Shown here: positions 1 through 59,188 of the stretch, one piece after another | Layout of the letters: every line of letters starts with the position of its first letter | How positions within the stretch are numbered: the first letter of the stretch is position 1 | From: Candidatus Saccharimonadales bacterium | GTDB lineage: Bacteria > Patescibacteriota > Saccharimonadia > Saccharimonadales > JANWIN01 | Length of the DNA: 64,000 nucleotides | Direction: 5' to 3' | Assembly (NCBI GenBank): GCA_025449905.1 | Contig: JANWIN010000011.1 | Coordinates: 724 to 64,723, forward strand | Translations under genes and position numbers: made by a program | Notes under the pieces: generated by a model | Told to the model about the DNA's origin: nothing | Databases searched by the model: none | The model's input: the letters and a program-made list of their open reading frames with translations, nothing else

Positions 1-2306
1 AAGGGTTGAGTTGGTACACCACCAATTAAAATTTGAGACACCGTATTAAAGTTTGGCAAACGCAAGATGTCATCGCGTTCAAAAACCGGTTGGAATTTTT
101 TAGTTAAGGCATCGGCATCAACATCAGCGCCGACTCTGAAGGCAATCAACGAACCAATGTTGCCAAATACGGCATCACGAATTTCATCTGTTAATTGAGT
201 AGTAAATTGGTTAGCTACTACTAGATTCAAGCGGTATTTACGAGCTTCGCTTAAAATCGTAGCGAATGAGTCGGTTGAAAAGTTTTGGAACTCGTCGACG
301 TACAGACAAAAGTCCTGGCGATCTTCCTCGTCAACGTTGGCCCGGCTCATAGCCGCCGCCTGGAACTTCATAACAAAAATCATACCTAGCAACTTGGAGT
401 TAAGTTCGCCAGTGCGGCCTTTGCTAAGATTCACGAACAATATCTTTTTATTGTCCATAATCTCGCGTAAATTGAAGGAACTTTTTGACTGTCCAATAAC
501 ATTTCTCATCATTTCGTTACTTAAAAAGGCGCCAAATTTGCTGACGAACCAGCCTAAGACTTCGCTTTTATGGTAGTCGCTGGTTTGAGCCATTTCCCTA
601 TCCCAAAAGTCTAGGACTGTTCTATCCGTTACATATTGTTTGAGCTCTTTTTCATATTGTTTATCGGTGAATACTTTAGGAATATCAATAAACGTACCGC
701 CTTCGGGGTTGGCCATAACCGTCAGTGCGGCGTTCCTAAACCAGTGTTCGTAGCGAGGGCCAATTATGCCCTGATGCTGGGGGTCATAAAGCTTATAGAG
801 CATATTTATAGCTTCCTGGATTAAAAAGTCTCTCTGATCGGGCGTATGGAATTCAAACATGTTAAGTCCCATCGGGTAGTCCATATCGGCTGGACAAAAG
901 TATATGACGTCTTCTGTGCGTTCCCTAGGCACCATAGCCATGAGTTTTTCGACTACATCGCCGTGCGGATCGACAAAAGCAAAACCATTGCCGGCCAGCA
1001 TGTCTTGCAAGGCCAAGTTTTCCATAAATGTAGACTTACCGGTACCGGTTTGACCAACGGTATAAATATGCCGGCGGCGGTCATCGTGACTCAAGCGAAT
1101 CGGCTTTTTAACCCCCCGAAAGATGTTGTAGCCGAGCAAAAAACCTTCTTCCGATACATTACGCGGGCCATCAACCTGTTTGGTCGCCTGACGTTCCAAT
1201 TGAGTTGTTGGAATATTTTTTTCGTCTGGAAAATGGAATAGGGTGGCAAGCTCAATGGAGTTTAAGATATTATCGACGTTTTCCGGCGGAAAAAATCTCA
1301 AGATGTAGGCGGTAATAAAGGATTCAATGTCACGTGACGGCGTGAATTTAAAGCCGTTCTTTCCGGCCGAATCAAACAGCGAGAATGCGGCTACGACATT
1401 GCTTAAAATAGCCTGGGCACGCTGGGAAACGTTAGAAGAAGCCACTACCCTAATTAAGACTTGATATCCAGGATAACGAGTTTTGTCTTCAATGGCATCT
1501 ACAAGACTTTGATCAACTCCGCTTAGTTCATGCCTCTTTTCACCATCCTTACCGGATTTATCTTCGGGTGCTTTATACCACGCCGTGCCAAGCTGTTTGA
1601 CCCACCACATGGTTTCGCCGCCTTTTTTGTCGTTGCCGTCTTTTTTCTTTTTGGCCAAAGCTTGGGCAGTTTTGCGCCAACCGGATTCAGCCGGACGAAT
1701 TAAAATCTGAATACCAGCACCATCTTCTTTGTCTAAGGTTGAAAGGGCGTTTAGTAGCGCCTGCATGGCATCACGCTTGACTTCTTGATAGGTGGCAATC
1801 GGGTAGGCAAAAGGCTCTTTCAGGGTTAATTCGCCGCCTACAGTGCCGCTTAGACGTCCGACAGGGCTAAATATGTTGTGTTCGGCAACTTCTTGCAGCT
1901 GAGCGGTTGGATAGGCGCTAATTACAGCCTGTTTAATGACGTCAACCAGAGCTACTGGTACAGCTGCATAAAAGTGAACGAAGCCACGGCTGCCAACTAT
2001 TTCAAAAGCAAAATGACGCTGTCCATAAAACTTGCTCTTAAAATCTTTCTTAATGGTTGAAGCAATGATGCTATATAAAACTTGAGCTTTAGAGATATTT
2101 TCCTCGACAACATCGCGGACATCGCGCTGGCCGATCTCTGTATCTTCGCTTATCGGCGGTAAATGAATAAGTAGCGGCACCATCTTTAGGCCGCGCTCAA
2201 AATTCTTTTGTTCCCTCAGTAGTTTGCGTGACCTCAGATAAATAGCCAGCCCCACACAGGTGGTCAGGCTTAGTAGGATGAAAAGAACTATTATAAAAGT
2301 TGTCAT
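1..2306 (-). CDS. Type IV secretion coupling-protein-like ATPase (VirD4/TraG/TrwB type), partial; C-terminus lies beyond window start
   Basis: Absent from the ORF track because its stop is off-window. My manual minus-strand translation from the ATG at 2306-2304 is stop-free to position 1 (MTTFIIVLFILLSLTT..., one N-terminal TM helix). It has Walker A GQTGTGKST, Walker B-like LYVDEFQNF, and a TraG/TraD-like C-terminal region. Only short ORFs occur on the plus strand here. Confidence 0.75.
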   Translation of the reverse strand, partial: MTTFIIVLFILLSLTTCVGLAIYLRSRKLLREQKNFERGLKMVPLLIHLPPISEDTEIGQRDVRDVVEENISKAQVLYSIIASTIKKDFKSKFYGQRHFAFEIVGSRGFVHFYAAVPVALVDVIKQAVISAYPTAQLQEVAEHNIFSPVGRLSGTVGGELTLKEPFAYPIATYQEVKRDAMQALLNALSTLDKEDGAGIQILIRPAESGWRKTAQALAKKKKDGNDKKGGETMWWVKQLGTAWYKAPEDKSGKDGEKRHELSGVDQSLVDAIEDKTRYPGYQVLIRVVASSNVSQRAQAILSNVVAAFSLFDSAGKNGFKFTPSRDIESFITAYILRFFPPENVDNILNSIELATLFHFPDEKNIPTTQLERQATKQVDGPRNVSEEGFLLGYNIFRGVKKPIRLSHDDRRRHIYTVGQTGTGKSTFMENLALQDMLAGNGFAFVDPHGDVVEKLMAMVPRERTEDVIYFCPADMDYPMGLNMFEFHTPDQRDFLIQEAINMLYKLYDPQHQGIIGPRYEHWFRNAALTVMANPEGGTFIDIPKVFTDKQYEKELKQYVTDRTVLDFWDREMAQTSDYHKSEVLGWFVSKFGAFLSNEMMRNVIGQSKSSFNLREIMDNKKILFVNLSKGRTGELNSKLLGMIFVMKFQAAAMSRANVDEEDRQDFCLYVDEFQNFSTDSFATILSEARKYRLNLVVANQFTTQLTDEIRDAVFGNIGSLIAFRVGADVDADALTKKFQPVFERDDILRLPNFNTVSQILIGGVPTQP

Positions 2307-2309
2307 GGC

Positions 2310-2630
2310 CTATTCATTTGTTGTTTGAATATCTTTGTTATAGCGTTTTTTAATATAGTCAGCTTTAATTTTATTTATTTCTTTATTCCTTAGATGTGGG
2401 TTATCTTTAGTTTGTTCGACGATGTGTTTGGCTTTTTCAACCCATTCTTTCTCTATTAAATCGGTGTCATCAGCGATAGCCGGATTAGCAGGCGCTGGCA
2501 TTGCGGCGGGAACGGCTGGACTTGAACCATCTGACGGAGGAATTTGAGGCAAATTGGGCACTGTTGATGGCAGATTACCATCAGTAGGCACATTGTTATC
2601 TGGCGATAATTGATTACTTCCCGAATCCAT
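2310..2630 (-). CDS. Hypothetical small protein with Pro-rich N-terminus and Lys-rich helical C-terminus
   Basis: 106-aa ORF. Its stop lies 3 nt upstream of the coupling-protein ATG, implying an operon. No recognisable domain. Confidence 0.5.
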   Translation of the reverse strand: MDSGSNQLSPDNNVPTDGNLPSTVPNLPQIPPSDGSSPAVPAAMPAPANPAIADDTDLIEKEWVEKAKHIVEQTKDNPHLRNKEINKIKADYIKKRYNKDIQTTNE

Positions 2631-2667
2631 TTCTTTGCTAAATTATACAGTAATAAAGGGCTTGTGG

Positions 2668-3066
2668 TTATACGTACTTACTAAGATCGAGCTTGGATAT
2701 GTAGAAAATCGTCAGTGCATATACGCTGAGTAAAATAATCGTGTCTTTAGCCGTAAGCTGGTCTATAGATTTAAGAAGTAGTAGTAAGGTGGGCAGGGCC
2801 GCCGCTAGTAAACTGAATTCATAACGCTTAACCCTTGATGGTAGAAGTGATTTTTTAGCCAATAAGTTAAAAATCATTATGAAACTGAGAAATAAACAGA
2901 TGAAAAGCCATACAAAAGGTAAAATTAACAGCCCGGCGGGTAGTTTGTCTGGGTCTGTACTAAAGAGGAATACAAACAACCCAAGATAGAGGAGGATTAG
3001 TACTATGATTTTTTTTCTAGGCATCTTTAGTATCGGCATATATCTATAATAACCCAAATAAATCAA
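2668..3066 (-). CDS. Small integral membrane protein, function unknown
   Basis: 132-aa ORF with several hydrophobic segments. The start is uncertain; alternative Met codons lie at 3039 and 3024. Confidence 0.5.
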   Translation of the reverse strand: MIYLGYYRYMPILKMPRKKIIVLILLYLGLFVFLFSTDPDKLPAGLLILPFVWLFICLFLSFIMIFNLLAKKSLLPSRVKRYEFSLLAAALPTLLLLLKSIDQLTAKDTIILLSVYALTIFYISKLDLSKYV

Positions 3067-7920: not shown

Positions 7921-7946
7921 AAAAATCCCAAAACGGGATTTTTTAA
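7921..7946 (-). terminator. Intrinsic terminator after rnpB
   Basis: Palindrome AAAUCCCGUUUUGGGAUUU followed by a U-run on the minus strand, immediately 3' of the RNase P RNA. Confidence 0.7.
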
Positions 7947-8297
7947 TGCCAGATTATCTGTAAGCCGGGTTTTGTCTGTCTGGTCATCTATCTAGGCCTT
8001 AAGTTGCCCTAAGGCTCGAGCGGTTCTTGTGACGCTTTTAAGGCAGGATACCATTGTTTAAAAGCATCTCCTTGCAGCAAACAGGGTTTACCACTTCGCC
8101 GTGTCACCACTGCGAATTGCGAGCTCTTACCTCGCTCTTTTCACCCTTGCCACCAGCTTTAGGCTGGCTTAGCGGTATAGTTTCTGTGGCACTTTCCCTA
8201 GAGTCGCCTCTGGTTGCCGTTAGCAACTGTCTTTTCCTTGAGCTGCCCGGACTTTCCTCGACAGGGCTACCTGTCGCGACCAGTCGATAATCTGGCA
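7947..8297 (-). ncRNA. rnpB: RNase P RNA (bacterial type A-like)
   Basis: The minus strand contains GAGGAAAGUCCGGGC (P4 5' strand) and ACAAAACCCGGCUUA (P4 3' strand). P1 forms by CCAGAUUAUC/GAUAAUCUGG. The two track ORFs here (8054-8290 and 8104-8298) are artefacts. Confidence 0.92.
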
Positions 8298-9480: not shown

Positions 9481-9636
9481 CTTTGCATTTAAGTATTCTA
9501 GTAGGCGGCAATGAAGCGCGCAGTGAGGCGTACAAGCTGTACGGTGAACGAGCACTGCAATTGATAACAACGTAGAACACCAAAAGCACCAGCGGGGTTC
9601 GAGCTGCGCTCGAAAGCAGGCTGGTGCGGTGCAAAG
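9481..9636 (+). repeat. Structured repeat family, copy G
   Basis: Closing helix CUUUGCA/UGCAAAG, GGCGGCA box, P1 GCAGUG/CACUGC, CGUAC-AAGCU-GUACG hairpin, and second domain CACCAGC-GGGG-UUCGAGC-UGC-GCUCGAA-AGCAG-GCUGGUG. Confidence 0.6.
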
Positions 9637-9794: not shown

Positions 9795-10412
9795 TTAAGT
9801 TATAAATCTTAGAATAGCTTCATCGATATTAACCAGTAAGTCTGTAAATTGGGGTACCAATAATATTAAGCCAAAGACAACAAATATGCCAAATTGCTCA
9901 AGCTGGGCCATTACATTCTGCAAAGCCTCAGGGGCGAAAGCATAAAGCACCCGTGAACCATCCAGGGGTGGTATAGGTATCATATTAAACACAAACAGCG
10001 CAACGTTAAGCTGAACGAAGGCGTGAATCCATAGATAAGTATTACTGATAAGGCTAGGGTTTAAAATATTTAAGAAAAGCGCTGATAAAATAGCCAAGAC
10101 CAAGTTTGTCAGCGGCCCGGCAACGGCAATTAAAGCGGCACCAAATTCCTCGTATTTAACTCGGTTTGGATTAAAGGGTACCGGTTTGGCTGCCAGTATC
10201 GGAATGCCGAAGGCTATAGTGGTAATAATCGGTAAAATCAGCGTGCTAAACGGATCAATATGTTTAAGAGGATTAAGGCTTATACGGCCTTCTAGTTTAG
10301 CGGTGTCATCACCTAGCCAGTAACCTGTGAAAGCATGCATGGCTTCGTGTATGGTTATGGAAATCAGCAGGGCCAAGATAAGCACAACTAAGTTTGTTGT
10401 ATCTAAATCCAT
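9795..10412 (-). CDS. Site-2 protease family (M50) membrane metalloprotease
   Basis: 205 aa, multi-TM, with the HEAMHAF zinc motif. Confidence 0.75.
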   Translation of the reverse strand: MDLDTTNLVVLILALLISITIHEAMHAFTGYWLGDDTAKLEGRISLNPLKHIDPFSTLILPIITTIAFGIPILAAKPVPFNPNRVKYEEFGAALIAVAGPLTNLVLAILSALFLNILNPSLISNTYLWIHAFVQLNVALFVFNMIPIPPLDGSRVLYAFAPEALQNVMAQLEQFGIFVVFGLILLVPQFTDLLVNIDEAILRFIT

Positions 10413-20627: not shown

Positions 20628-20795
20628 AGAATTAATGCATTTGGATGCAAAACAGTATTTCTTTACGAGGAACTCCAGCGAAGCGTACATACGACGTACG
20701 TTGAAGCGAGTACCGCAGTAAAAAATGCTGTTTTGCGCCAAAATCCCGTGGCGCAGCCAGCTCCGCTGGATGGCAGGCGGGAGGTGCATAATTCT
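20628..20795 (+). repeat. Structured repeat family, copy E, immediately upstream of xerC
   Basis: P0 AGAAUUAAUGCA/UGCAUAAUUCU, GGAUGCA box, P1 GCAAAACAG/CUGUUUUGC, CGUAC-AUACGAC-GUACG hairpin, and second domain UCCCGU-GGCGCAG-CCAGC-UCC-GCUGG-AUGGCAG-GCGGGA. Confidence 0.7.
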
Positions 20796-20796
20796 G

Positions 20797-21714
20797 ATGC
20801 TGTTTCAGAAGGCTAAAACTGATTTTTTAGAATATCTAGAAATTGAGCAAAACCGCTCGCAAAAAACAATTTCTAACTACGACCACTATCTGACTCGCCT
20901 GCAGGACTACGCCGGTGATATAAAAGTTAGTGATATCGACGGCGACTTAATTCGCAAGTGGCGGATCTGGCTTAATCGTTTGGGAACAAATACTAGCGAA
21001 GAGTTAGAGAAAACCACTCAAAATTACCACTTGATTGCCCTTAGATCCTTTCTAAAGTTTTGTGCTAAAAACAACATTCCAGCCTTGTCAGCCGACAAAA
21101 TTGATTTAGCCAGAACGCGCCGCAAACAAGTAACATTTTTGAGCCCAGAGGAAGTGGAAAGACTGATAGCCCAACCCAAAACCGATACTCTGCCTGGACT
21201 GCGTGACCGCGCTATTTTAGAGCTGCTATTTTCCAGCGGACTGCGGGTTTCTGAGCTAGTCAATTTAAACAAAGATCATATAAATTTAAAACGGCGCGAA
21301 TTCACCGTCCGGGGTAAAGGTCAAAAAGACCGTCCGGTCTTTATCAGCCCGGCGGCGGCGCACTGGCTAGAGCTTTATTTGGACAAGCGAACAGATACGG
21401 TTAGTCCGCTTTTTGTGCGTTACAGCGGCAGCAAGCAAGTTGACCGCAGCGGTAATTTTCACCGTTTAACAGCCCGTAGTATTCAGCGAATGGTTGGCCG
21501 TCAGGCTAGACTGGCTGGTATTACTAAGCATGTTTCGCCGCATACACTGCGGCACTCTTTTGCCACCGATTTACTGATGAACGGCGCCGATTTGCGCAGC
21601 GTTCAAGCCCTTCTAGGACACAGTAATATTGCTACTACTCAGATTTATACGCATATTACCGACCCGCACCTGCGGGCCGTCCACGAGAAGTTTCATAACT
21701 CTGGCAAAGATTAA
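20797..21714 (+). CDS. XerC/XerD-family tyrosine recombinase
   Basis: SAM-like N domain plus catalytic R...HxxR...Y (HTLRHSFATDLL, LLGHSNIATTQIYTH). The start is moved to ATG 20797, which is preceded by GGGAGGUG; the track start at 20725 lies inside the repeat. Confidence 0.85.
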   Translation: MLFQKAKTDFLEYLEIEQNRSQKTISNYDHYLTRLQDYAGDIKVSDIDGDLIRKWRIWLNRLGTNTSEELEKTTQNYHLIALRSFLKFCAKNNIPALSADKIDLARTRRKQVTFLSPEEVERLIAQPKTDTLPGLRDRAILELLFSSGLRVSELVNLNKDHINLKRREFTVRGKGQKDRPVFISPAAAHWLELYLDKRTDTVSPLFVRYSGSKQVDRSGNFHRLTARSIQRMVGRQARLAGITKHVSPHTLRHSFATDLLMNGADLRSVQALLGHSNIATTQIYTHITDPHLRAVHEKFHNSGKD

Positions 21715-33694: not shown

Positions 33695-35683
33695 CTAAAA
33701 CGCTGGTGGTAAGCTAGTCAGTGAATCGTAGCTATTGGCCGGTGCGTCAGTCAGATTGGGATTAACCAGCCATAGTTCGGGGAGATAATTTATGACTTCA
33801 GCGATGTTGCCCGAGGTGCTTTGCTCGTTAGCGACGGCGTCTTTAACGTTGCCATTGACGCGCAAAAAGCGTATTTGGTCAGCCAGTAAGGCACCGTTTA
33901 CGGTTAATTTGTTTCTACATTTGTCACTATCGTATAACTGAGCTCCTGAGTACAGACTGCCGCCATTGGTACAAGTATATATATTACCGCCTTGAGCAAT
34001 GTAAACGCCGTCCAGATTAGTTACATCATTGTCTATATATATGTCGCCTTTCACTATTAGGTAAAAGGATGGTATCTGTTCCAAACTTGCCCAACTAGCA
34101 CTGCCTGAATAAGTAACATTGCCAGTAATTACCACTTTGCCGGTGTGTTTTATGACTTTATGCTGGCTGTCGCTAATTGAATCACCGTTATAGTTTCCAC
34201 CAACAATTGGGTCTGTGGAATTAGTAGTAATGTCAAAGTAATTGGGGGCACAAAGTTGGGCGGGCTGGAAATTCCCTCCCCACGTGCCGCTGGTGTTGGC
34301 AAAGGTTAAACCTGTCGGCGGTTGAGGATCCGTAGTACGCAAGTTGGCACTAGCAAATTCATTAATGGCACTGGGAGCTTGAGCCGCAAACTGCGTACCG
34401 GCACCGATGCCGTTACCGTCGTTGTAAGTTAATATGCCAGCGCTACCATTAGCGCTACAGCTGCTGCTACTGTCTAGAAAACCGTTGCCGGCTAGCACGT
34501 CGCCGCCATAGACTCTGACGTATGGTTTGTTGGCAATTGTTATATCTGCGTCACAGCCGCTAACGCTTCCAACTCCGCTTACATTAACACTGTAGCTGCC
34601 GTTATAAGTTCCCGCTGGAAAACCAGGAATATTTATATTGGGCGTTGTGGTTGCGCCGCCGCCCGCTGCCAGTGGAGGATTAGTTGCTGTGAAAGGCGGC
34701 GCGCCGGTAATTGTTAGCGTCAAGTTGTAACTATATGACGGACTTGAATTGCCGTTCTTAATTACAAAACCTGGCTTAGCAGTAAAGCCGGCCTCGTCAT
34801 TGGGTGGAGATGGGCTGGTTGAAAAAGTACCACACTCTATAGTTGGTGACGGTGTTGGAGGAGGTAGTGGTACACAATTACCTGAAGAGTCTAAATAGTA
34901 GCCAGTCGGCACACTTGATTGGTTACCGGGCAGATTAGGACATACATCAATCGGCTGATTTGGATAACAATTGCCTGACGAGTCTCTATAGTAGCCTGCC
35001 GGCACGGATGATTGATTGCCGGCAATGTTAAGACAAAGATCGGTTGGATTTGGATAACAATTGCCTGACGAGTCTCTATAGTAGCCTGCCGGCACGGATG
35101 ATTGATTCCCGGCAATATTCTTGCAAAGGTCGGTTGGCGGCGGTGGAGGAGGTGGAGGACTGGTAAGTTTTACCTTAAAACATGTTTTGACTCCATCAGT
35201 TTCGTGAGCACTACCATTAATTACAGCCTTGCCTGCCCACGCGTAACAAAGATCGTGTGTACCGGCACTTAGGCTGGAAACATCTAGTTTTATGCCAAAG
35301 TGCTGGTGATAAACTTGGCCTTTTCCAGATTGATAGGCAAAAAGGACTTGGCTTGGCATATTATTAATCTTAGAGTCTACAAAACCGGTATTAACTTGCG
35401 GAAATCCCGTAGCATTGTATGAAGCTCCATTACAAATATAATGTTCAGCAACCATGGTAGCGTTGAGGGTATTAGTGCTAGTGGTACCTGTATAAAGACC
35501 TTTGTCCGGCATTGTTAGAAAGCCAGTATATTTGAAGCCTGATCCGCTCCCACTTGGGCACCTAGAATTCCACCAGCTAACGCTGTTGTGAGCAGAAATT
35601 TTATTACTAATTAACAAAATAATTAACAAGCCTACGGCGGTAGTTATTAATAAAAGTTTTGATTTATTAGTTCGTTGTTTCAT
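33695..35683 (-). CDS. Large secreted/anchored repeat protein directly upstream of pilM
   Basis: 662 aa. Features in order: N-terminal TM or signal, a poly-Pro run, three 30-aa Cys-bracketed repeats (C.N..GNQSSVP.GYY.DSSGNC.P), and a C-terminal region with beta-helix-like VITGNVTY...IYIDNDVTNLDGVYIA. Confidence 0.7.
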   Translation of the reverse strand: MKQRTNKSKLLLITTAVGLLIILLISNKISAHNSVSWWNSRCPSGSGSGFKYTGFLTMPDKGLYTGTTSTNTLNATMVAEHYICNGASYNATGFPQVNTGFVDSKINNMPSQVLFAYQSGKGQVYHQHFGIKLDVSSLSAGTHDLCYAWAGKAVINGSAHETDGVKTCFKVKLTSPPPPPPPPTDLCKNIAGNQSSVPAGYYRDSSGNCYPNPTDLCLNIAGNQSSVPAGYYRDSSGNCYPNQPIDVCPNLPGNQSSVPTGYYLDSSGNCVPLPPPTPSPTIECGTFSTSPSPPNDEAGFTAKPGFVIKNGNSSPSYSYNLTLTITGAPPFTATNPPLAAGGGATTTPNINIPGFPAGTYNGSYSVNVSGVGSVSGCDADITIANKPYVRVYGGDVLAGNGFLDSSSSCSANGSAGILTYNDGNGIGAGTQFAAQAPSAINEFASANLRTTDPQPPTGLTFANTSGTWGGNFQPAQLCAPNYFDITTNSTDPIVGGNYNGDSISDSQHKVIKHTGKVVITGNVTYSGSASWASLEQIPSFYLIVKGDIYIDNDVTNLDGVYIAQGGNIYTCTNGGSLYSGAQLYDSDKCRNKLTVNGALLADQIRFLRVNGNVKDAVANEQSTSGNIAEVINYLPELWLVNPNLTDAPANSYDSLTSLPPAF
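34868..35137 (-). repeat. Three tandem 90-nt coding repeats
   Basis: Positions 34958-35017 and 35048-35107 are identical over 60 nt. A third unit (34868-34957) is diverged. The period is 90 nt, or 30 codons. Confidence 0.85.
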
Positions 35684-38368: not shown

Positions 38369-38536
38369 ACAAGTTTCGCATCAGATTGACCTGCTGTCCA
38401 GCAAAGCTGGTCACTCAGTCAATCTTCTTGGCGCATCGCTTTGTCAGCTACGCTCTATCTCTCGCTCATCGTACTTTTGTACGTCTCGCTCGCTTTTCTC
38501 TACTTCCTAGCGCTGCATCCAAGTGCGAAAACTTGT
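38369..38536 (-). repeat. Structured repeat family, copy A, filling the tlyA-PRTase intergenic region
   Basis: P0 ACAAGUUUUCGCA/UGCGAAACUUGU, GGAUGCA box, CGUAC-AAAA-GUACG hairpin flanked by GCGAG-rich strands, and second domain GAUUGAC-UGAGUGA-CCAGC-UUU-GCUGG-ACAGCAG-GUCAAUC. Confidence 0.7.
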
Positions 38537-49899: not shown

Positions 49900-50673
49900 T
49901 TAGGCTGTCTTTTTTATAAGTTTTAAGATGTCCGGAATCCGGGCAAAGTCATCTATTAAAGTTTGGCGCATAGCGCCGTTATAAAGAGCGGCCGCCGGAT
50001 GAAACAGCGGCAGGATGACCAAGGACGTAATAGACTGCTCGTCGGCTGAGCCGCCGACTCTGCTATTACTTGCGACGAATTGCTGCGTCAGCTGCGTGCG
50101 AGACTCACTCTTCGTACCATCTGTACGTTTCGTTCGTTTCTCCTTGCTTCCTTGCACTTCATCCGCCCCTAGGTCTCCTGTAGGTCTGGACTGTGTGCTG
50201 TCAGCTGTCAGCTGTAACCTAATCCTCTTGGGCTGTCCGTGAACTTCGCCGATTGATAAATCTGGCAAGAAACAATTCATGCTATGACGGCCCAATGTAG
50301 CTACAATTTTGGGCTTAATTACTTTCAATTGAGTCTGCAAAAACGGCAAGAAAGCCACCTTCTCTTCCGGCAATGGATCACGGTTATTGGGTGGGCGGTA
50401 TTTAACAATGTTTGTTATGTATACGTCGGTTCTTTTTAGGCCTATCATCTCCAGCATTTCGTTTAAAAACTTGCCAGCGGCGCCAACGAATGGCAAGCCT
50501 TGCAGGTCTTCGTTTTTACCCGGTGCTTCGCCGACAAAAACAATGTCGGCATCAGCATTGCCGTCGCCAAACACCAGTTGGGTGGCCTCTTTTGCCAGTT
50601 CAGGACAAACTTTTTGCTCAATTATTGATTTAGCAATTTTATCCAGCTGGTTTTGCTTGGCTATTTTAGTCAT
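49900..50673 (-). CDS. Family-4 uracil-DNA glycosylase carrying an in-frame insertion of about 60-65 codons
   Basis: GEAPG motif A and HPAA motif B are present. About 85 residues separate VHGQP from HPAA, far more than the roughly 15-25 residues I recall for typical family-4 enzymes. Confidence 0.8.
   Translation of the reverse strand: MTKIAKQNQLDKIAKSIIEQKVCPELAKEATQLVFGDGNADADIVFVGEAPGKNEDLQGLPFVGAAGKFLNEMLEMIGLKRTDVYITNIVKYRPPNNRDPLPEEKVAFLPFLQTQLKVIKPKIVATLGRHSMNCFLPDLSIGEVHGQPKRIRLQLTADSTQSRPTGDLGADEVQGSKEKRTKRTDGTKSESRTQLTQQFVASNSRVGGSADEQSITSLVILPLFHPAAALYNGAMRQTLIDDFARIPDILKLIKKTA
50017..50175 (-). repeat. Structured repeat family, copy B, inside the UDG ORF
   Basis: P0 GACCUAGGG/UCCUUGGUC, GGAUGAA box, CGUAC-AGAUG-GUACG hairpin, and second domain GUAAUAG-CAGA-GUCGGC-GGCUCA-GCCGAC-GAGCAGU-CUAUUAC. 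The central 60 nt are about 75% identical to copy A. Confidence 0.7.
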
Positions 50674-53460: not shown

Positions 53461-54135
53461 TTAGAGCAATAGCAATTTGTGTTCAATTGAATCAAAGTTT
53501 AGTTCAGTTATTGAGTCTTTTAAATCGTAGTCACCGACTTGAATACGTTTTAGGTTCGTCATGTAGGCGCCGGTGCCCAATTTTTGGCCTACGTCTTCAA
53601 CCAACGAGCGAATGTATGTGCCGCTTGATACTTTGGTGGTGAATGAAATTAGCGGATATTTGTACTTAATATCAGCTATTTCGTGGACCGTCACCTGCCT
53701 AGGTTCAATTTTTACTTCTTTTCCGGCCCTAGCCAGTTTATAAGCGCGCTGCCCACCGACTTTTAAAGCTGAAAATGCGTGCGGGGTTTGCTCAATCTCG
53801 CCCAAAAAGCTTTTTAGGGCCTCGTTTACTGCTTTTTCTGAAGGTTTTTTGTCGGAAATGACCGTTTTATCCCCTTCCTCATCACCGGTTGTGCTGGTTT
53901 CACCTAGTTTCATTTCAACTTCATAAGTTTTGTCCAGTTTCAAAAATTCTTGGGCTGTTTTAGTGTAATTGCCAACTAAAATAATCAATAAACCAGTAGC
54001 TAATGGATCCAAAGTCCCTGCATGACCAACTTTGGGCTTAGTAGTTCCCTGCTTTTTGAGCAAGCCGCGAATTTTAGCCACGACATCATGCGACGTCCAG
54101 CTCTTTGGCTTATTAACCAGTAAAAATCCGTTCAT
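53461..54135 (-). CDS. truB: tRNA pseudouridine-55 synthase (short form)
   Basis: MNGFLLVNKP...HAGTLDPLATGLL catalytic Asp motif. Confidence 0.88.
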   Translation of the reverse strand: MNGFLLVNKPKSWTSHDVVAKIRGLLKKQGTTKPKVGHAGTLDPLATGLLIILVGNYTKTAQEFLKLDKTYEVEMKLGETSTTGDEEGDKTVISDKKPSEKAVNEALKSFLGEIEQTPHAFSALKVGGQRAYKLARAGKEVKIEPRQVTVHEIADIKYKYPLISFTTKVSSGTYIRSLVEDVGQKLGTGAYMTNLKRIQVGDYDLKDSITELNFDSIEHKLLLL

Positions 54136-57436: not shown

Positions 57437-58322
57437 CATCGTCAGCGTCAATGATCTGACTCTTCAGACTGACATCTTGTTTTAAAGCTCTGTTTATTAA
57501 TGCTTTTAATTCAGCAAGACTTAAATTATGGGCAATTTCATAACTTTTGCGTACCACAAATGGATTGAGTTTTGCCTCTTTGGCAATATCATCAATACTG
57601 CGCTGCCCACCCGCCTTAATGGTCGCTAAAATATGTAGCTGCCAGCCAATCATAGCCATAATTTCCAGTGGTTCTACTCTTTTTTGCCGTTGCTCGTTGT
57701 ATAGAGCCATTGTTTTTTCGCTGTTACCGCTAAACGCCGTATCTAACAAATCAAAAATACTGCTCTGGGGGCTTGGCTCGGTCAATAAATCGATGGTTCC
57801 GCGGGTAACACTAGGCTGATAAATTAATAATTTGTTAAGTTCGTTAAAAAGCAGTTCTTGATTAACGCCTACTCTATCAATTAAATATCTAGCTTCACCA
57901 AAACCAAGTTGGCCACCGGCCTTTTTAGCGCTTTCACTTAGCCATTTGGCAAGAGTGATATCATCTTGTTCACTAAGTTCCCTAAACTCGGTTTTAGATT
58001 TCAAAACTTTAAAATAATTTTGTCTTTTATCTATTTTTGACTCAATAATGACGACTTCAATACTGTCAGGAATTGAACTAATTATTTGTTCAATCTTTTC
58101 GCTAAACTGCTTGTTCTTACTGGGGTCGCGTAATATTACCAGCTTCTTTTCTAGTAAAAATGGCAGGTTTTGCAGAGCTTCATTTATCGGTCCAATCTCA
58201 GCCTCCTCGCCATCCAGTCTTTCAACTGCCAAATCATTATATTGCTTAATGAATTTGCTGCTTAATTCATTAAGTTTTTGAATAATTTGAAAGTGGTTAT
58301 TGCCAGTTAAGGTAGTTATCAT
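57402..58322 (-). CDS. holA: DNA polymerase III delta subunit
   Basis: 306 aa with HolA-like length and helical C domain. It overlaps the rpsT end by 35 nt. Confidence 0.6.
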   Translation of the reverse strand: MITTLTGNNHFQIIQKLNELSSKFIKQYNDLAVERLDGEEAEIGPINEALQNLPFLLEKKLVILRDPSKNKQFSEKIEQIISSIPDSIEVVIIESKIDKRQNYFKVLKSKTEFRELSEQDDITLAKWLSESAKKAGGQLGFGEARYLIDRVGVNQELLFNELNKLLIYQPSVTRGTIDLLTEPSPQSSIFDLLDTAFSGNSEKTMALYNEQRQKRVEPLEIMAMIGWQLHILATIKAGGQRSIDDIAKEAKLNPFVVRKSYEIAHNLSLAELKALINRALKQDVSLKSQIIDADDAMRHFLLSLAS

Positions 58323-59188
58323 GATTTAAGCCTTTGGCATTTAGGGCATAAATGAGTGCCCCTGCCTGCCACCCTTATCTTTATTATAGTACTTCCACAA
58401 CGCGGACAAGGCTGACCTTCACGCCTAAAAACCCGGGCAAAACTCATATAACTGCCTTTTTTGCCCTCGGCATTAACGTAATTTCTATCAGTACTGCCGC
58501 CTTTTTCAATACTCAATCGCAAAACATACTGTAATTCTTCAAATAGATTATTAATTTTTTGAGTTGATAAGTCCCTAACAGGAGTTAAGGGATGGATTTT
58601 CGCGCCCCACAGCGACTCATCGGCGTAAATATTACCCACACCAGCAATTATTGACTGATCAAGCAGCACGGTTTTAACAGATGAATTTGGCCGTTTTTTA
58701 AGTCGGGCAGCAAAAGCTTTGGCACCAAAGCTGGCGGCTAGCGGCTCCGGACCAATTTTCTTGAAAAAGTCGATACTGGGAACTTCGGCCGTTGGTATTA
58801 ATCTCATCCAGCCAAATTTTCTTTGGTCGTTAAAGAATAATTTCCCCTCATTTAGCTCTAATGTAACCCTGGTAGACTTGTCCGGGAGATGGCCAATTAA
58901 AGATTCGCTAGGGTGCCCCGCTCCAAAACGTTCACGCCCCACAAAAACTAGTTGGCCAGTCATTTTTAGGTGTATGACTAAGCTATATTTACTACTAAGC
59001 TCAATTAAAAGTACCTTGGCTCGGCGTTTTACTAAGACTATTTTGGCGCCGATTAAAAAACTATCTGTATCGGCTTGAGAGTTTGGGAACGATTTGAGCC
59101 AGTCCCAGGTGACATTCTTGATAGTTTTGCCCGGTAATAGCTTAGCCAGCCCAATTTTAACAGTTTCTACCTCTGGCAACTCTGGCAT
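58319..59188 (-). CDS. mutM: Formamidopyrimidine-DNA glycosylase
   Basis: MPELPEVE N-terminus, an H2TH region, and the C-terminal zinc finger CPRCGS...CPKCQ. Confidence 0.92.
   Translation of the reverse strand: MPELPEVETVKIGLAKLLPGKTIKNVTWDWLKSFPNSQADTDSFLIGAKIVLVKRRAKVLLIELSSKYSLVIHLKMTGQLVFVGRERFGAGHPSESLIGHLPDKSTRVTLELNEGKLFFNDQRKFGWMRLIPTAEVPSIDFFKKIGPEPLAASFGAKAFAARLKKRPNSSVKTVLLDQSIIAGVGNIYADESLWGAKIHPLTPVRDLSTQKINNLFEELQYVLRLSIEKGGSTDRNYVNAEGKKGSYMSFARVFRREGQPCPRCGSTIIKIRVAGRGTHLCPKCQRLKS

Follow-up and report, generated by a model that had tools for sequence, protein, structure and literature searches.

A 64,000-nucleotide stretch of a Candidatus Saccharimonadales genome (contig JANWIN010000011.1, positions 724 to 64,723; hereafter the window) carries a gene for a family-4 uracil-DNA glycosylase (UDG) that contains a copy of a structured repeat within its coding sequence. 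The product of this open reading frame (ORF) matches the UDG family PF03167 of Pfam (E 1.1e-32) and the solved family-4 enzymes 4zbx, 1vk2 and 1ui0 (192-205 residues; E 1e-30 to 1e-43). The solved UDGs cover the 257-residue query in two blocks, 9-136 and 217-249, and leave about 80 query residues between them unmatched. By sequence, fold and the two signature motifs (A, GEAPG; B, HPA or HPS), the protein belongs to the UDG superfamily; its motif A (GEAPG) and motif B (LFHPAAA) are both retained, as an initial annotation made from the letters of the sequence had stated. When aligned with 4zbx, the query shows VCPEL at the CKKC position and NIVKYRPP at the VKCRPP position, and the window UDG and its homologues have one cysteine left of the N-terminal CxxC region (VCPEL). 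Judging from these residues, the ligands of the family-4 4Fe-4S cluster seem to be missing in this Saccharibacteria UDG clade.

The extra segment was delimited codon by codon against relatives drawn from 1.4 Mb of Saccharibacteria DNA that we collected around UDG genes, about 20 kb per genome (loci designated L). The closest genomic relative of the window found among these loci is L093, whose RNase J and PNPase are 88% and 90% identical to those of the window in amino-acid sequence and whose DNA is ~78% identical across the syntenic stretch. Where the window UDG has 70 codons, L093 has six (LAAQVY), a net difference of +64 codons that agrees with the 60-65 extra codons first estimated. The comparison with orthologues proposed by the initial annotation placed the insertion boundaries, with six L093 codons replaced, and brought no target duplication to light at what is an old junction. 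L093 carries no element copy in its 20 kb, and its Fpg has 289 residues. The smaller features that had been read from the window sequence are all in place: the run of tandem CAGCTGA units, the duplicated AGACCTA (50170-50176 and 50181-50187), the preserved frame without a stop codon and the translated peptide.

A dispersed repeat family

A covariance model built from six copies, termed R1, recovers four full copies of the repeat in the window (92-143 bits, E 1e-21 to 1e-33; Table 1), and the copy in the UDG gene lies in sense orientation, as had been claimed. With filters off, R1 gives no other window match below E 0.1, and a 33-copy nhmmer profile found no fifth window copy. Positions 50035-50165 in the UDG gene and 38391-38520 in an intergenic spacer are 65% identical (blastn E 2e-9, nhmmer E 1e-6). 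The resemblance among copies, on which the initial reading had beforehand been made to stand or fall, thus survives both computed alignment and covariance-model scoring. The copies at ~9.5 kb and ~20.7 kb were first found with a two-sequence profile, and an exact-seed repeat finder detected no family at the UDG locus, because the copies are too diverged for it and call for profile or covariance methods. The window's UDG copy shares 88% identity with its counterpart in L088, and no more than 67% with any other copy in the window. Rfam returned no match to the repeat over the window at gathering thresholds and no meaningful match for the two best copies at E up to 10; neither group I or group II intron nor ribozyme membership was found.

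The 38-kb copy fills the spacer from an ftsJ/tlyA-like gene to a phosphoribosyltransferase-like gene and is sense to both. Next to the copy at 20.7 kb, the tyrosine recombinase family PF00589 is matched on 20725-21714; the longest ORF begins within the element copy, and the true start of this XerC/D-type gene is probably further downstream.

Beyond the window, R1 finds 29 further copies in other Saccharibacteria loci, of which only the UDG copies of L004 and L020 had served in building the model. These copies lie at the same site in UDG genes (17 loci), at two sites in Fpg/MutM genes, in TruB genes and in intergenic spacers in both orientations. In genes, the element therefore occupies four independent sites (UDG, two in Fpg, TruB), always in frame and always sense. 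Fpg proteins with the insert measure 342-349 residues; in the window itself, Fpg (58319-59188, 289 residues) and TruB (53461-54135, 224 residues) are without the element. Among the 120 top UDG homologues, ~85 carry the insert at the same site, and the distance from KR to LPLF has its mode at 64 residues with the insert and is 6 or ~17 residues without it. A metagenome scan with insert peptides returned 7 loci. The 48 matches of an IMG/VR pattern scan proved to be chance hits, with 0 confirmed by the covariance model, and the scan gave no sign of a phage vehicle.

Five intergenic copies outside the window are antisense to their neighbours (Table 1), and in each the 3' end lies 6-10 nt past the stop codon of the upstream gene, so that the intercistronic structure in an operon mRNA would be formed by the element's complement. 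In L092, the called fpg gene (1947-3041) is N-terminally extended by 74 codons relative to its real start, MPELPEVE, because the frame stays open through an antisense copy of the element (1970-2120); the extension is an annotation artefact.

At the hairpin tip that bears the insert, short tandem duplications of other kinds occur in further UDGs, and those at L001 10433-10588 and L003 854-1003 carry low-complexity inserts there with short tandem repeats, e.g. CAGAATTCGGAA units, which R1 did not match. This tip seems prone to length expansion in general.

Table 1. Positions of the UDG insert, its parts and further repeat copies; window coordinates unless a locus is named
Feature	Position	Strand	Evidence or context
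Family-4 UDG ORF with insert, 257 residues	49900..50673	-	ORF list, Pfam, PDB relatives, core dN/dS
Whole extra segment, codons 151-220 (IRLQL...SLVI)	50014..50223	-	codon-by-codon comparison with L093 and L088; AlphaFold2
Low-complexity 5' linker with 2.5 tandem CAGCTGA units (50197-50214)	50192..50223	-	sequence
P0 5' strand, extended (CAGGAGACCUA, duplicated AGACCTA); unconstrained linker complementary to LVILP codons	50170..50191	-	duplex prediction -26.8 kcal/mol
P0 3' strand, extended; host codons (L)VILP, immediately preceding motif B (LFHPAAA)	50005..50021	-	
Repeat core in UDG (P0 core, long rod P1, hairpin P2)	50022..50169	-	R1 132.7 bits, E 5e-31
P1, long irregular hairpin; tip CGUAC-AGAUG-GUACG at 50113-50127	50067..50166	-	folds, pair counts
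P2, second hairpin (two helices and internal loop)	50024..50066	-	outer-helix covariation
Intergenic copy with extended P0	38366..38540 (R1 match 38378-38526)	-	R1 143 bits; fold z-score -5.5
Intergenic copy, antisense to flanking tRNA-Pro gene and ORF 9795-10412	9485..9632	+	R1 109 bits
Intergenic copy directly upstream of XerC/D-type recombinase gene, overlapping its longest ORF	20637..20787	+	R1 92 bits
Fpg/MutM copy before ERFGAGHP	L001 2221-2369		sense, in frame
Fpg/MutM copies before LFFNDQRKFG	L089 414-562; L094 2087-2235		sense, in frame
TruB copies before KVGHTGTLDP	L020 6301-6449; L082 1429-1577		sense, in frame
Intergenic copies antisense to neighbours	L009 12783-12929; L089 12836-12982; L018 16376-16480; L019 727-875; L014 17647-17795		

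Among features of other kinds, the window contains three tandem repeats of 90-93 nt at 34864-35136 (70-92% identical to the reference copy), an ordinary class A RNase P RNA at 7945-8295 (248 bits) and, elsewhere, six tRNA genes. In a related genome, a gene of the bAvd/23S_rRNA_IVP family, accessory to diversity-generating retroelements, adjoins efp (L091 17932-18333).

Fold, closing helix and constraint

All copies fold into the same Y shape, composed of a closing helix (P0), a rod (P1) and a hairpin (P2). The element measures ~150 nt in its core (148-149 nt) and ~170 nt with the closing stem. P1, of ~95 nt, is divided into five helical segments and capped by a CGUAY-loop-RUACG tip; among its conserved, purine-rich internal loops (GCAAGG, GAG) are two tandem G.A motifs as well as a U.G pair, the latter present in 27 of 32 copies. 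P2 is a hairpin of ~45 nt. Since the G.A and U.G features exist on the purine-rich strand only, the fold is strand-specific. In a first alignment, 91% of cells were paired, as against 27-47% with slid partners, and double changes occurred at 25 of the 31 pairs. Helices that are absent from the model covary as well, namely P0, P1d (the fourth helical segment of P1) and tip-adjacent pairs, with P0 being 95% paired and showing 11-13 double changes per pair. For 13 UDG copies aligned with MAFFT alone, 89% of cells were paired compared to 30-46% in controls, compensatory changes were seen at 25 of 42 pairs, and the outer P2 helix covaried at 8/8 pairs. On inspection, a hammerhead-like reading of CUGAUG...GAAAC, present in two copies, was rejected, there being no stem II and the motif being placed differently in each. 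Two UDG elements (L090 10487-10691 and L095 8807-8997) contain secondary in-frame insertions of 57 and 42 nt, which are located in P1, at its tip and in its 3' arm.

P0, the closing helix, had been proposed to bring the insertion boundaries together, and in the predicted folds it does close the insert. In every copy, it runs 10-25 bp beyond the model-defined core. Both P0 strands are element-derived in the intergenic copies, and the 38-kb window copy, L025 and L092 have a common CAAGTTT/AAACTTG P0 at different loci. At the genic sites (4/4), the 3' strand of P0 is host coding sequence just before the most conserved motif: (L)VILP before LFHPAAA in UDG, (H)LFF before NDQRKFG in Fpg, EER(F/W) before GAGHP at the second Fpg site and RIK before VGHTGTLDP in TruB. 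The 5' strand of the UDG helix is an unconstrained linker encoding xVGGQx, which among orthologues changes in step with synonymous variants of the host codons: CTA CC faces GGTAG, CTG CC faces GGCAG or CAGG, CTC TTG faces CAAGAG, and GTC TTA CC faces GGTAAGAC. Element-free UDGs with a 17-residue hairpin have no significant inverted repeat in their DNA (z-scores near 0), and they were ruled out both as scars keeping P0 and as pre-insertion hairpins.

Pairing between P0 and host codons may have been selected in place, may have been extended and corrected by template switching, or may have chosen the target. In the last case, base pairing would guide insertion: through its 5' terminal strand, the element would recognise a conserved coding segment by pairing and home to that site in naive alleles, which would explain both the patchiness and the motif adjacency. 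The complementarity of the 5' linker to the host codons immediately 3' of the insert, found before the most conserved motif at every one of the four genic sites, is what such homing would produce, and insert-bearing and insert-free alleles do alternate among close relatives. A guide of this kind, however, must differ for each target, whereas intergenic subfamily members at different loci have both P0 strands in common. Moreover, the copies cluster by position and are deeply diverged, which speaks for little recent movement; no enzyme is known to accompany them, and whole-allele homologous recombination is the simpler account of patchiness. We regard guided homing as improbable.

Nei-Gojobori counts (synonymous and non-synonymous differences per site) in nine pairs of insert-bearing orthologues distinguish the insert from the rest of the gene. 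For the UDG core, pS is 0.69-0.87, i.e. saturated, and dN/dS is 0.03-0.07; for the insert, the respective values are 0.19-0.47 and 0.4-1.1. Mean pairwise identity at core codon positions 1, 2 and 3 is 0.78, 0.87 and 0.41, and element positions have 0.64 when paired and 0.66 when unpaired. The copies group by genomic position and not by genome, which points to UDG copies being old positional orthologues that keep their fold via compensatory evolution. An intergenic pair, L025 and L092, is 73% identical compared to 37% at adjacent fpg third codon positions, indicating that the constraint is independent of coding context. As judged from these substitution patterns, the UDG insert is shown to be constrained as nucleic acid rather than as peptide. 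The age of the insertion in positional orthologues, the compensatory upkeep of the fold within coding sequence, the reach of P0 into essential host codons and the occurrence of the same element in Fpg and TruB elsewhere all go beyond what the initial annotation had described.

The same comparisons bear on whether the segment could be a genuine lineage-specific UDG domain or functional loop, its similarity elsewhere being due to shared peptide modules. Presence at one site in ~85 of the 120 best homologues would suit a domain, as would the recurring motifs VQG..EKRT and TQQ.A. It had been foreseen that orthologues with an equivalent, conserved segment would point to a domain; many orthologues do carry the segment and its peptide is recognisable, but the conservation resides in the nucleotides and not in the protein. 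Synonymous change is depressed while dN/dS reaches 0.4-1.1, compensatory changes preserve the helices, and AlphaFold2 predicts disorder. The peptide subfamilies RTSGT, PYKST and SYKEY correspond to one nucleotide hairpin tip read after small indels, their differences being local frame shifts. In addition, homologous intergenic copies carry stops, the frame in which the element is read differs between Fpg, TruB and UDG, and the nearest relative, L093, is without the segment. The insert is not a protein domain; this explanation is largely refuted, and we grant it hardly any probability.

A more serious contender is that the fold is kept by DNA-level processes without host function, either by intrastrand template switching, which corrects quasi-palindromes, or because a folded single strand serves propagation of the element. 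Such processes would fit the presence and conservation of copies in either orientation relative to transcription, the extension of P0 into host flanks at four independent genic sites and the short tandem duplications in the linker. Template switching, however, should perfect palindromes, whereas the copies conserve mismatches, tandem G.A motifs, the U.G pair and the P1d non-pair; unpaired positions are conserved as well as paired ones, and selfish selection cannot keep copies in place since lineages diverged. Upkeep of the fold by DNA-level processes of this type is unlikely, yet clearly the least unlikely of the alternatives that we considered.

Probable read-through, history and possible function

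Stops usually interrupt intergenic copies in each of the three sense frames (3, 3 and 4 in the 38-kb copy), whereas genic copies are all stop-free, and UDG, Fpg and TruB use three different element frames. This openness holds for the 17 UDG copies available as DNA and for ~85 known as protein only, all of which are in frame; the insert length in genes is always a multiple of three, and the secondary insertions are also frame-keeping. Downstream of the insert, 36 codons have a mean pS of 0.76 and a mean pN of 0.19 (window against L088, 0.70 and 0.036), substitution counts that show strong protein-level selection on the codons after the insert.

These observations address the alternative that the initial annotation had left standing, an intervening sequence that is cut out at the RNA level with its ends juxtaposed by P0, or that is bypassed by the ribosome, in either case yielding a protein without the insert. 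The long covarying P0 brings the boundaries together, structural conservation is RNA-like, and the genic copies adjoin the most conserved motifs in the manner of homing introns and inteins. An excised or bypassed element would, however, need no open frame, which makes read-through the much better explanation: an intervening sequence is free of frame and stop constraint within itself, and the UDG, Fpg and TruB copies, stop-free and of lengths divisible by three, are not, whereas intergenic copies are not open. The 148-149 nt core, moreover, is itself no multiple of three, and even at E up to 10 there was no Rfam intron or ribozyme match. Removal of the insert from message or protein is disfavoured and, in our estimate, very improbable. 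We infer from these evolutionary patterns that the insert is transcribed, kept in the mRNA and translated by read-through.

The translated segment should form a disordered surface loop. AlphaFold2 models the UDG core with confidence and assigns pLDDT <50 to residues 156-213, between strands 149-154 and 215-223, and so predicts that the insert lies at the tip of the beta-hairpin preceding motif B; a surface-loop position had been among the checks suggested at the outset. Its coding content presumably accounts for the sense-only orientation in genes, because the purine-rich strand encodes Lys, Arg, Glu, Ser, Thr, Gln and Gly, while the complement is hydrophobic and Cys-rich and would encode a peptide such as LLLLATNCCVSCV...FVRFSLLPC (ORF list).

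Considering fold, constraint and frame together, we find it likely that the UDG insert is a repeat copy similar to the Rickettsia palindromic elements (RPEs) that has been retained, is read in frame by the ribosome and is subject to nucleotide-level constraint. The initial proposal of an RPE-like in-frame insertion is, as an analogy, supported. In the scenario that we envisage, a dispersed, non-autonomous structured repeat of Saccharibacteria, analogous to RPEs and to MITEs (miniature transposable elements with inverted repeats), would have landed long ago at the tip of the UDG beta-hairpin. P0 is extended, such that a free linker pairs with the essential LVILP codons. The mRNA would keep the element, and the ribosome would read through it, yielding a hydrophilic, disordered loop of 50-60 residues that is tolerated by the enzyme. 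Presence and absence among close relatives would then have come about by deletion decay and by allele exchange through homologous recombination. We consider this combination the most likely source of the patchy distribution and recent transposition an unlikely one. Hairpin lengths form a continuum (17-26, 36, 40, 50, 53, then 60-94 residues) and truncated element copies exist, e.g. in L005 and L018, suggesting that copies decayed repeatedly through deletion. Homologous recombination may plausibly have exchanged alleles as well; the window genome is nearest to the insert-free L093, yet its UDG protein is nearer to that of the insert-bearing L088. Nothing indicating recent transposition was seen in the copies examined.

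Several points weigh against the RPE-like reading. In a UDG core tree, which is based on ~190 residues and poorly resolved, short-hairpin, long-hairpin and element-bearing forms interleave (Fitch, 40 changes over 143 taxa). A target-site duplication is visible neither at the UDG junction compared to L093 nor at the intergenic copies, the insertions being too old for this absence to be firm, and a parent transposase was not found in the window or in the ~20-kb-per-genome loci; mobility is thus deduced from the dispersed homologous copies. These copies are only 55-67% identical within a genome, unlike active MITEs. Since some intergenic copies are antisense to both neighbours, a purely mRNA-level role cannot fit all copies unless they have promoters of their own. 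The upkeep of the stems could partly reflect quasi-palindrome template-switch correction and not selection, and G.U pairs outnumber A.C pairs only modestly when the conserved U.G column is set aside (23 vs 18). Finally, the case for transcription, retention and read-through of the insert is an evolutionary one throughout.

The most interesting question raised by the element is what maintains its fold and whether this fold acts at the level of RNA or of single-stranded DNA. The most likely role, though a tentative one, is that the folded purine-rich strand is recognised as RNA, e.g. as a module for processing, stability or protein binding that resides in mRNAs and intercistronic spacers. We rank this above the less likely option that the element acts as single-stranded or cruciform DNA. 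A bolder and doubtful proposal is that the element represents a functional nucleic-acid module, either a three-way-junction RNA or a single-stranded DNA fold with conserved G.A and U.G features, that is required in place by the cell or by the element itself, selected even within coding sequence and anchored by pairing with the codons just upstream of the best-conserved motifs of base-flipping enzymes (UDG, Fpg, TruB). If this were true, the module would reflect pairing-guided, homing-like targeting or a cis-regulatory mRNA switch, and its dual coding would be of a kind undescribed for RPEs and MITEs.

Comparison with known repeat systems

In the searchable full-text literature, we found no description of an element of this kind in Saccharibacteria or other members of the Candidate Phyla Radiation; as far as that literature shows, it would be the first case of an RPE-like family of protein-coding palindromes from the radiation. 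It offers an unusually clean natural experiment, in which a 150-nt segment that would be read by the ribosome is nevertheless under nucleic-acid structural constraint, with positional orthologues and intergenic paralogues by the dozen to compare. The finding bears on how ultra-small genomes tolerate, and perhaps use, selfish repeats, on how new disordered loops enter conserved enzymes and on how far embedded structure constrains synonymous sites. In practical terms, gene callers extend ORFs through antisense copies, as for the L092 fpg gene, and alignments of Saccharibacteria enzymes will contain inserts.

Dispersed structured repeats at gene ends, present in both orientations and with proposed roles in mRNA stability or DNA topology, are also known as repetitive extragenic palindromes (REPs) and bacterial interspersed mosaic elements. 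REPs are 20-40 nt long, strictly extragenic and marked by a GTAG or CGTC tag (PMC3733652). The Saccharibacteria element differs in having ~170 nt and two arms and in residing within genes as well. With homing introns and inteins it has in common a location within or beside the most conserved motifs of nucleic-acid enzymes and a patchy distribution among close relatives. It has, however, no splicing motifs, endonuclease gene or Rfam intron match, and the open-frame requirement points to an insert that would stay in the translated message.

MITE-like families of enterobacteria and Neisseria come closer. ERIC/RU-1, YPAL/RU-2, RU-3 and the 107-bp Correia element comprise 100-170 bp, have terminal inverted repeats and form stable RNA stem-loops; some genic copies of enterobacterial and Neisseria MITEs provide open frames fused to host ORFs, and some affect mRNA processing or stability (PMC2229807). 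The Saccharibacteria element resembles them as a small dispersed unit of 100-200 bp, with four copies in 64 kb and 29 elsewhere, and it has terminal inverted repeats in the form of P0 in every copy, albeit with a P0 sequence that is not conserved between subfamilies. In those enterobacterial and Neisseria families, by contrast, terminal inverted repeats are conserved, copies are near-identical and TA target duplications occur, whereas here the terminal helix varies in sequence between copies, no target duplication was seen, within-genome identity is low, and positional orthologues persist across lineages with saturated synonymous sites.

The closest parallel is provided by the RPEs, stem-loop elements of ~100-150 bp in a reduced genome that occur both in intergenic regions and in frame within conserved protein genes (Delihas 2007, PMC2229807). 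An RPE-bearing guanylate kinase gene (gmk) is translated into an enzymatically active product, and RPE insertions are old (PMC2229807). The Saccharibacteria element is likewise a small folded repeat, intergenic as well as in frame in conserved genes, and its insertions are old; in-frame fusion with the frame kept was found at the UDG site, both Fpg sites and the TruB site. Host phylum and base composition differ, and the two are likened by behaviour, not by sequence. Whereas an RPE is a simple long palindrome, the Saccharibacteria element forms a three-way junction whose purine-rich internal loops are conserved, and nucleotide-level purifying selection and compensatory change were measured for it within coding sequence. 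Its closing helix, moreover, recruits essential host codons by catalytic motifs, and three element frames are in use across genes. We therefore propose a functional analogy between the Saccharibacteria element and the RPEs and claim no family membership.

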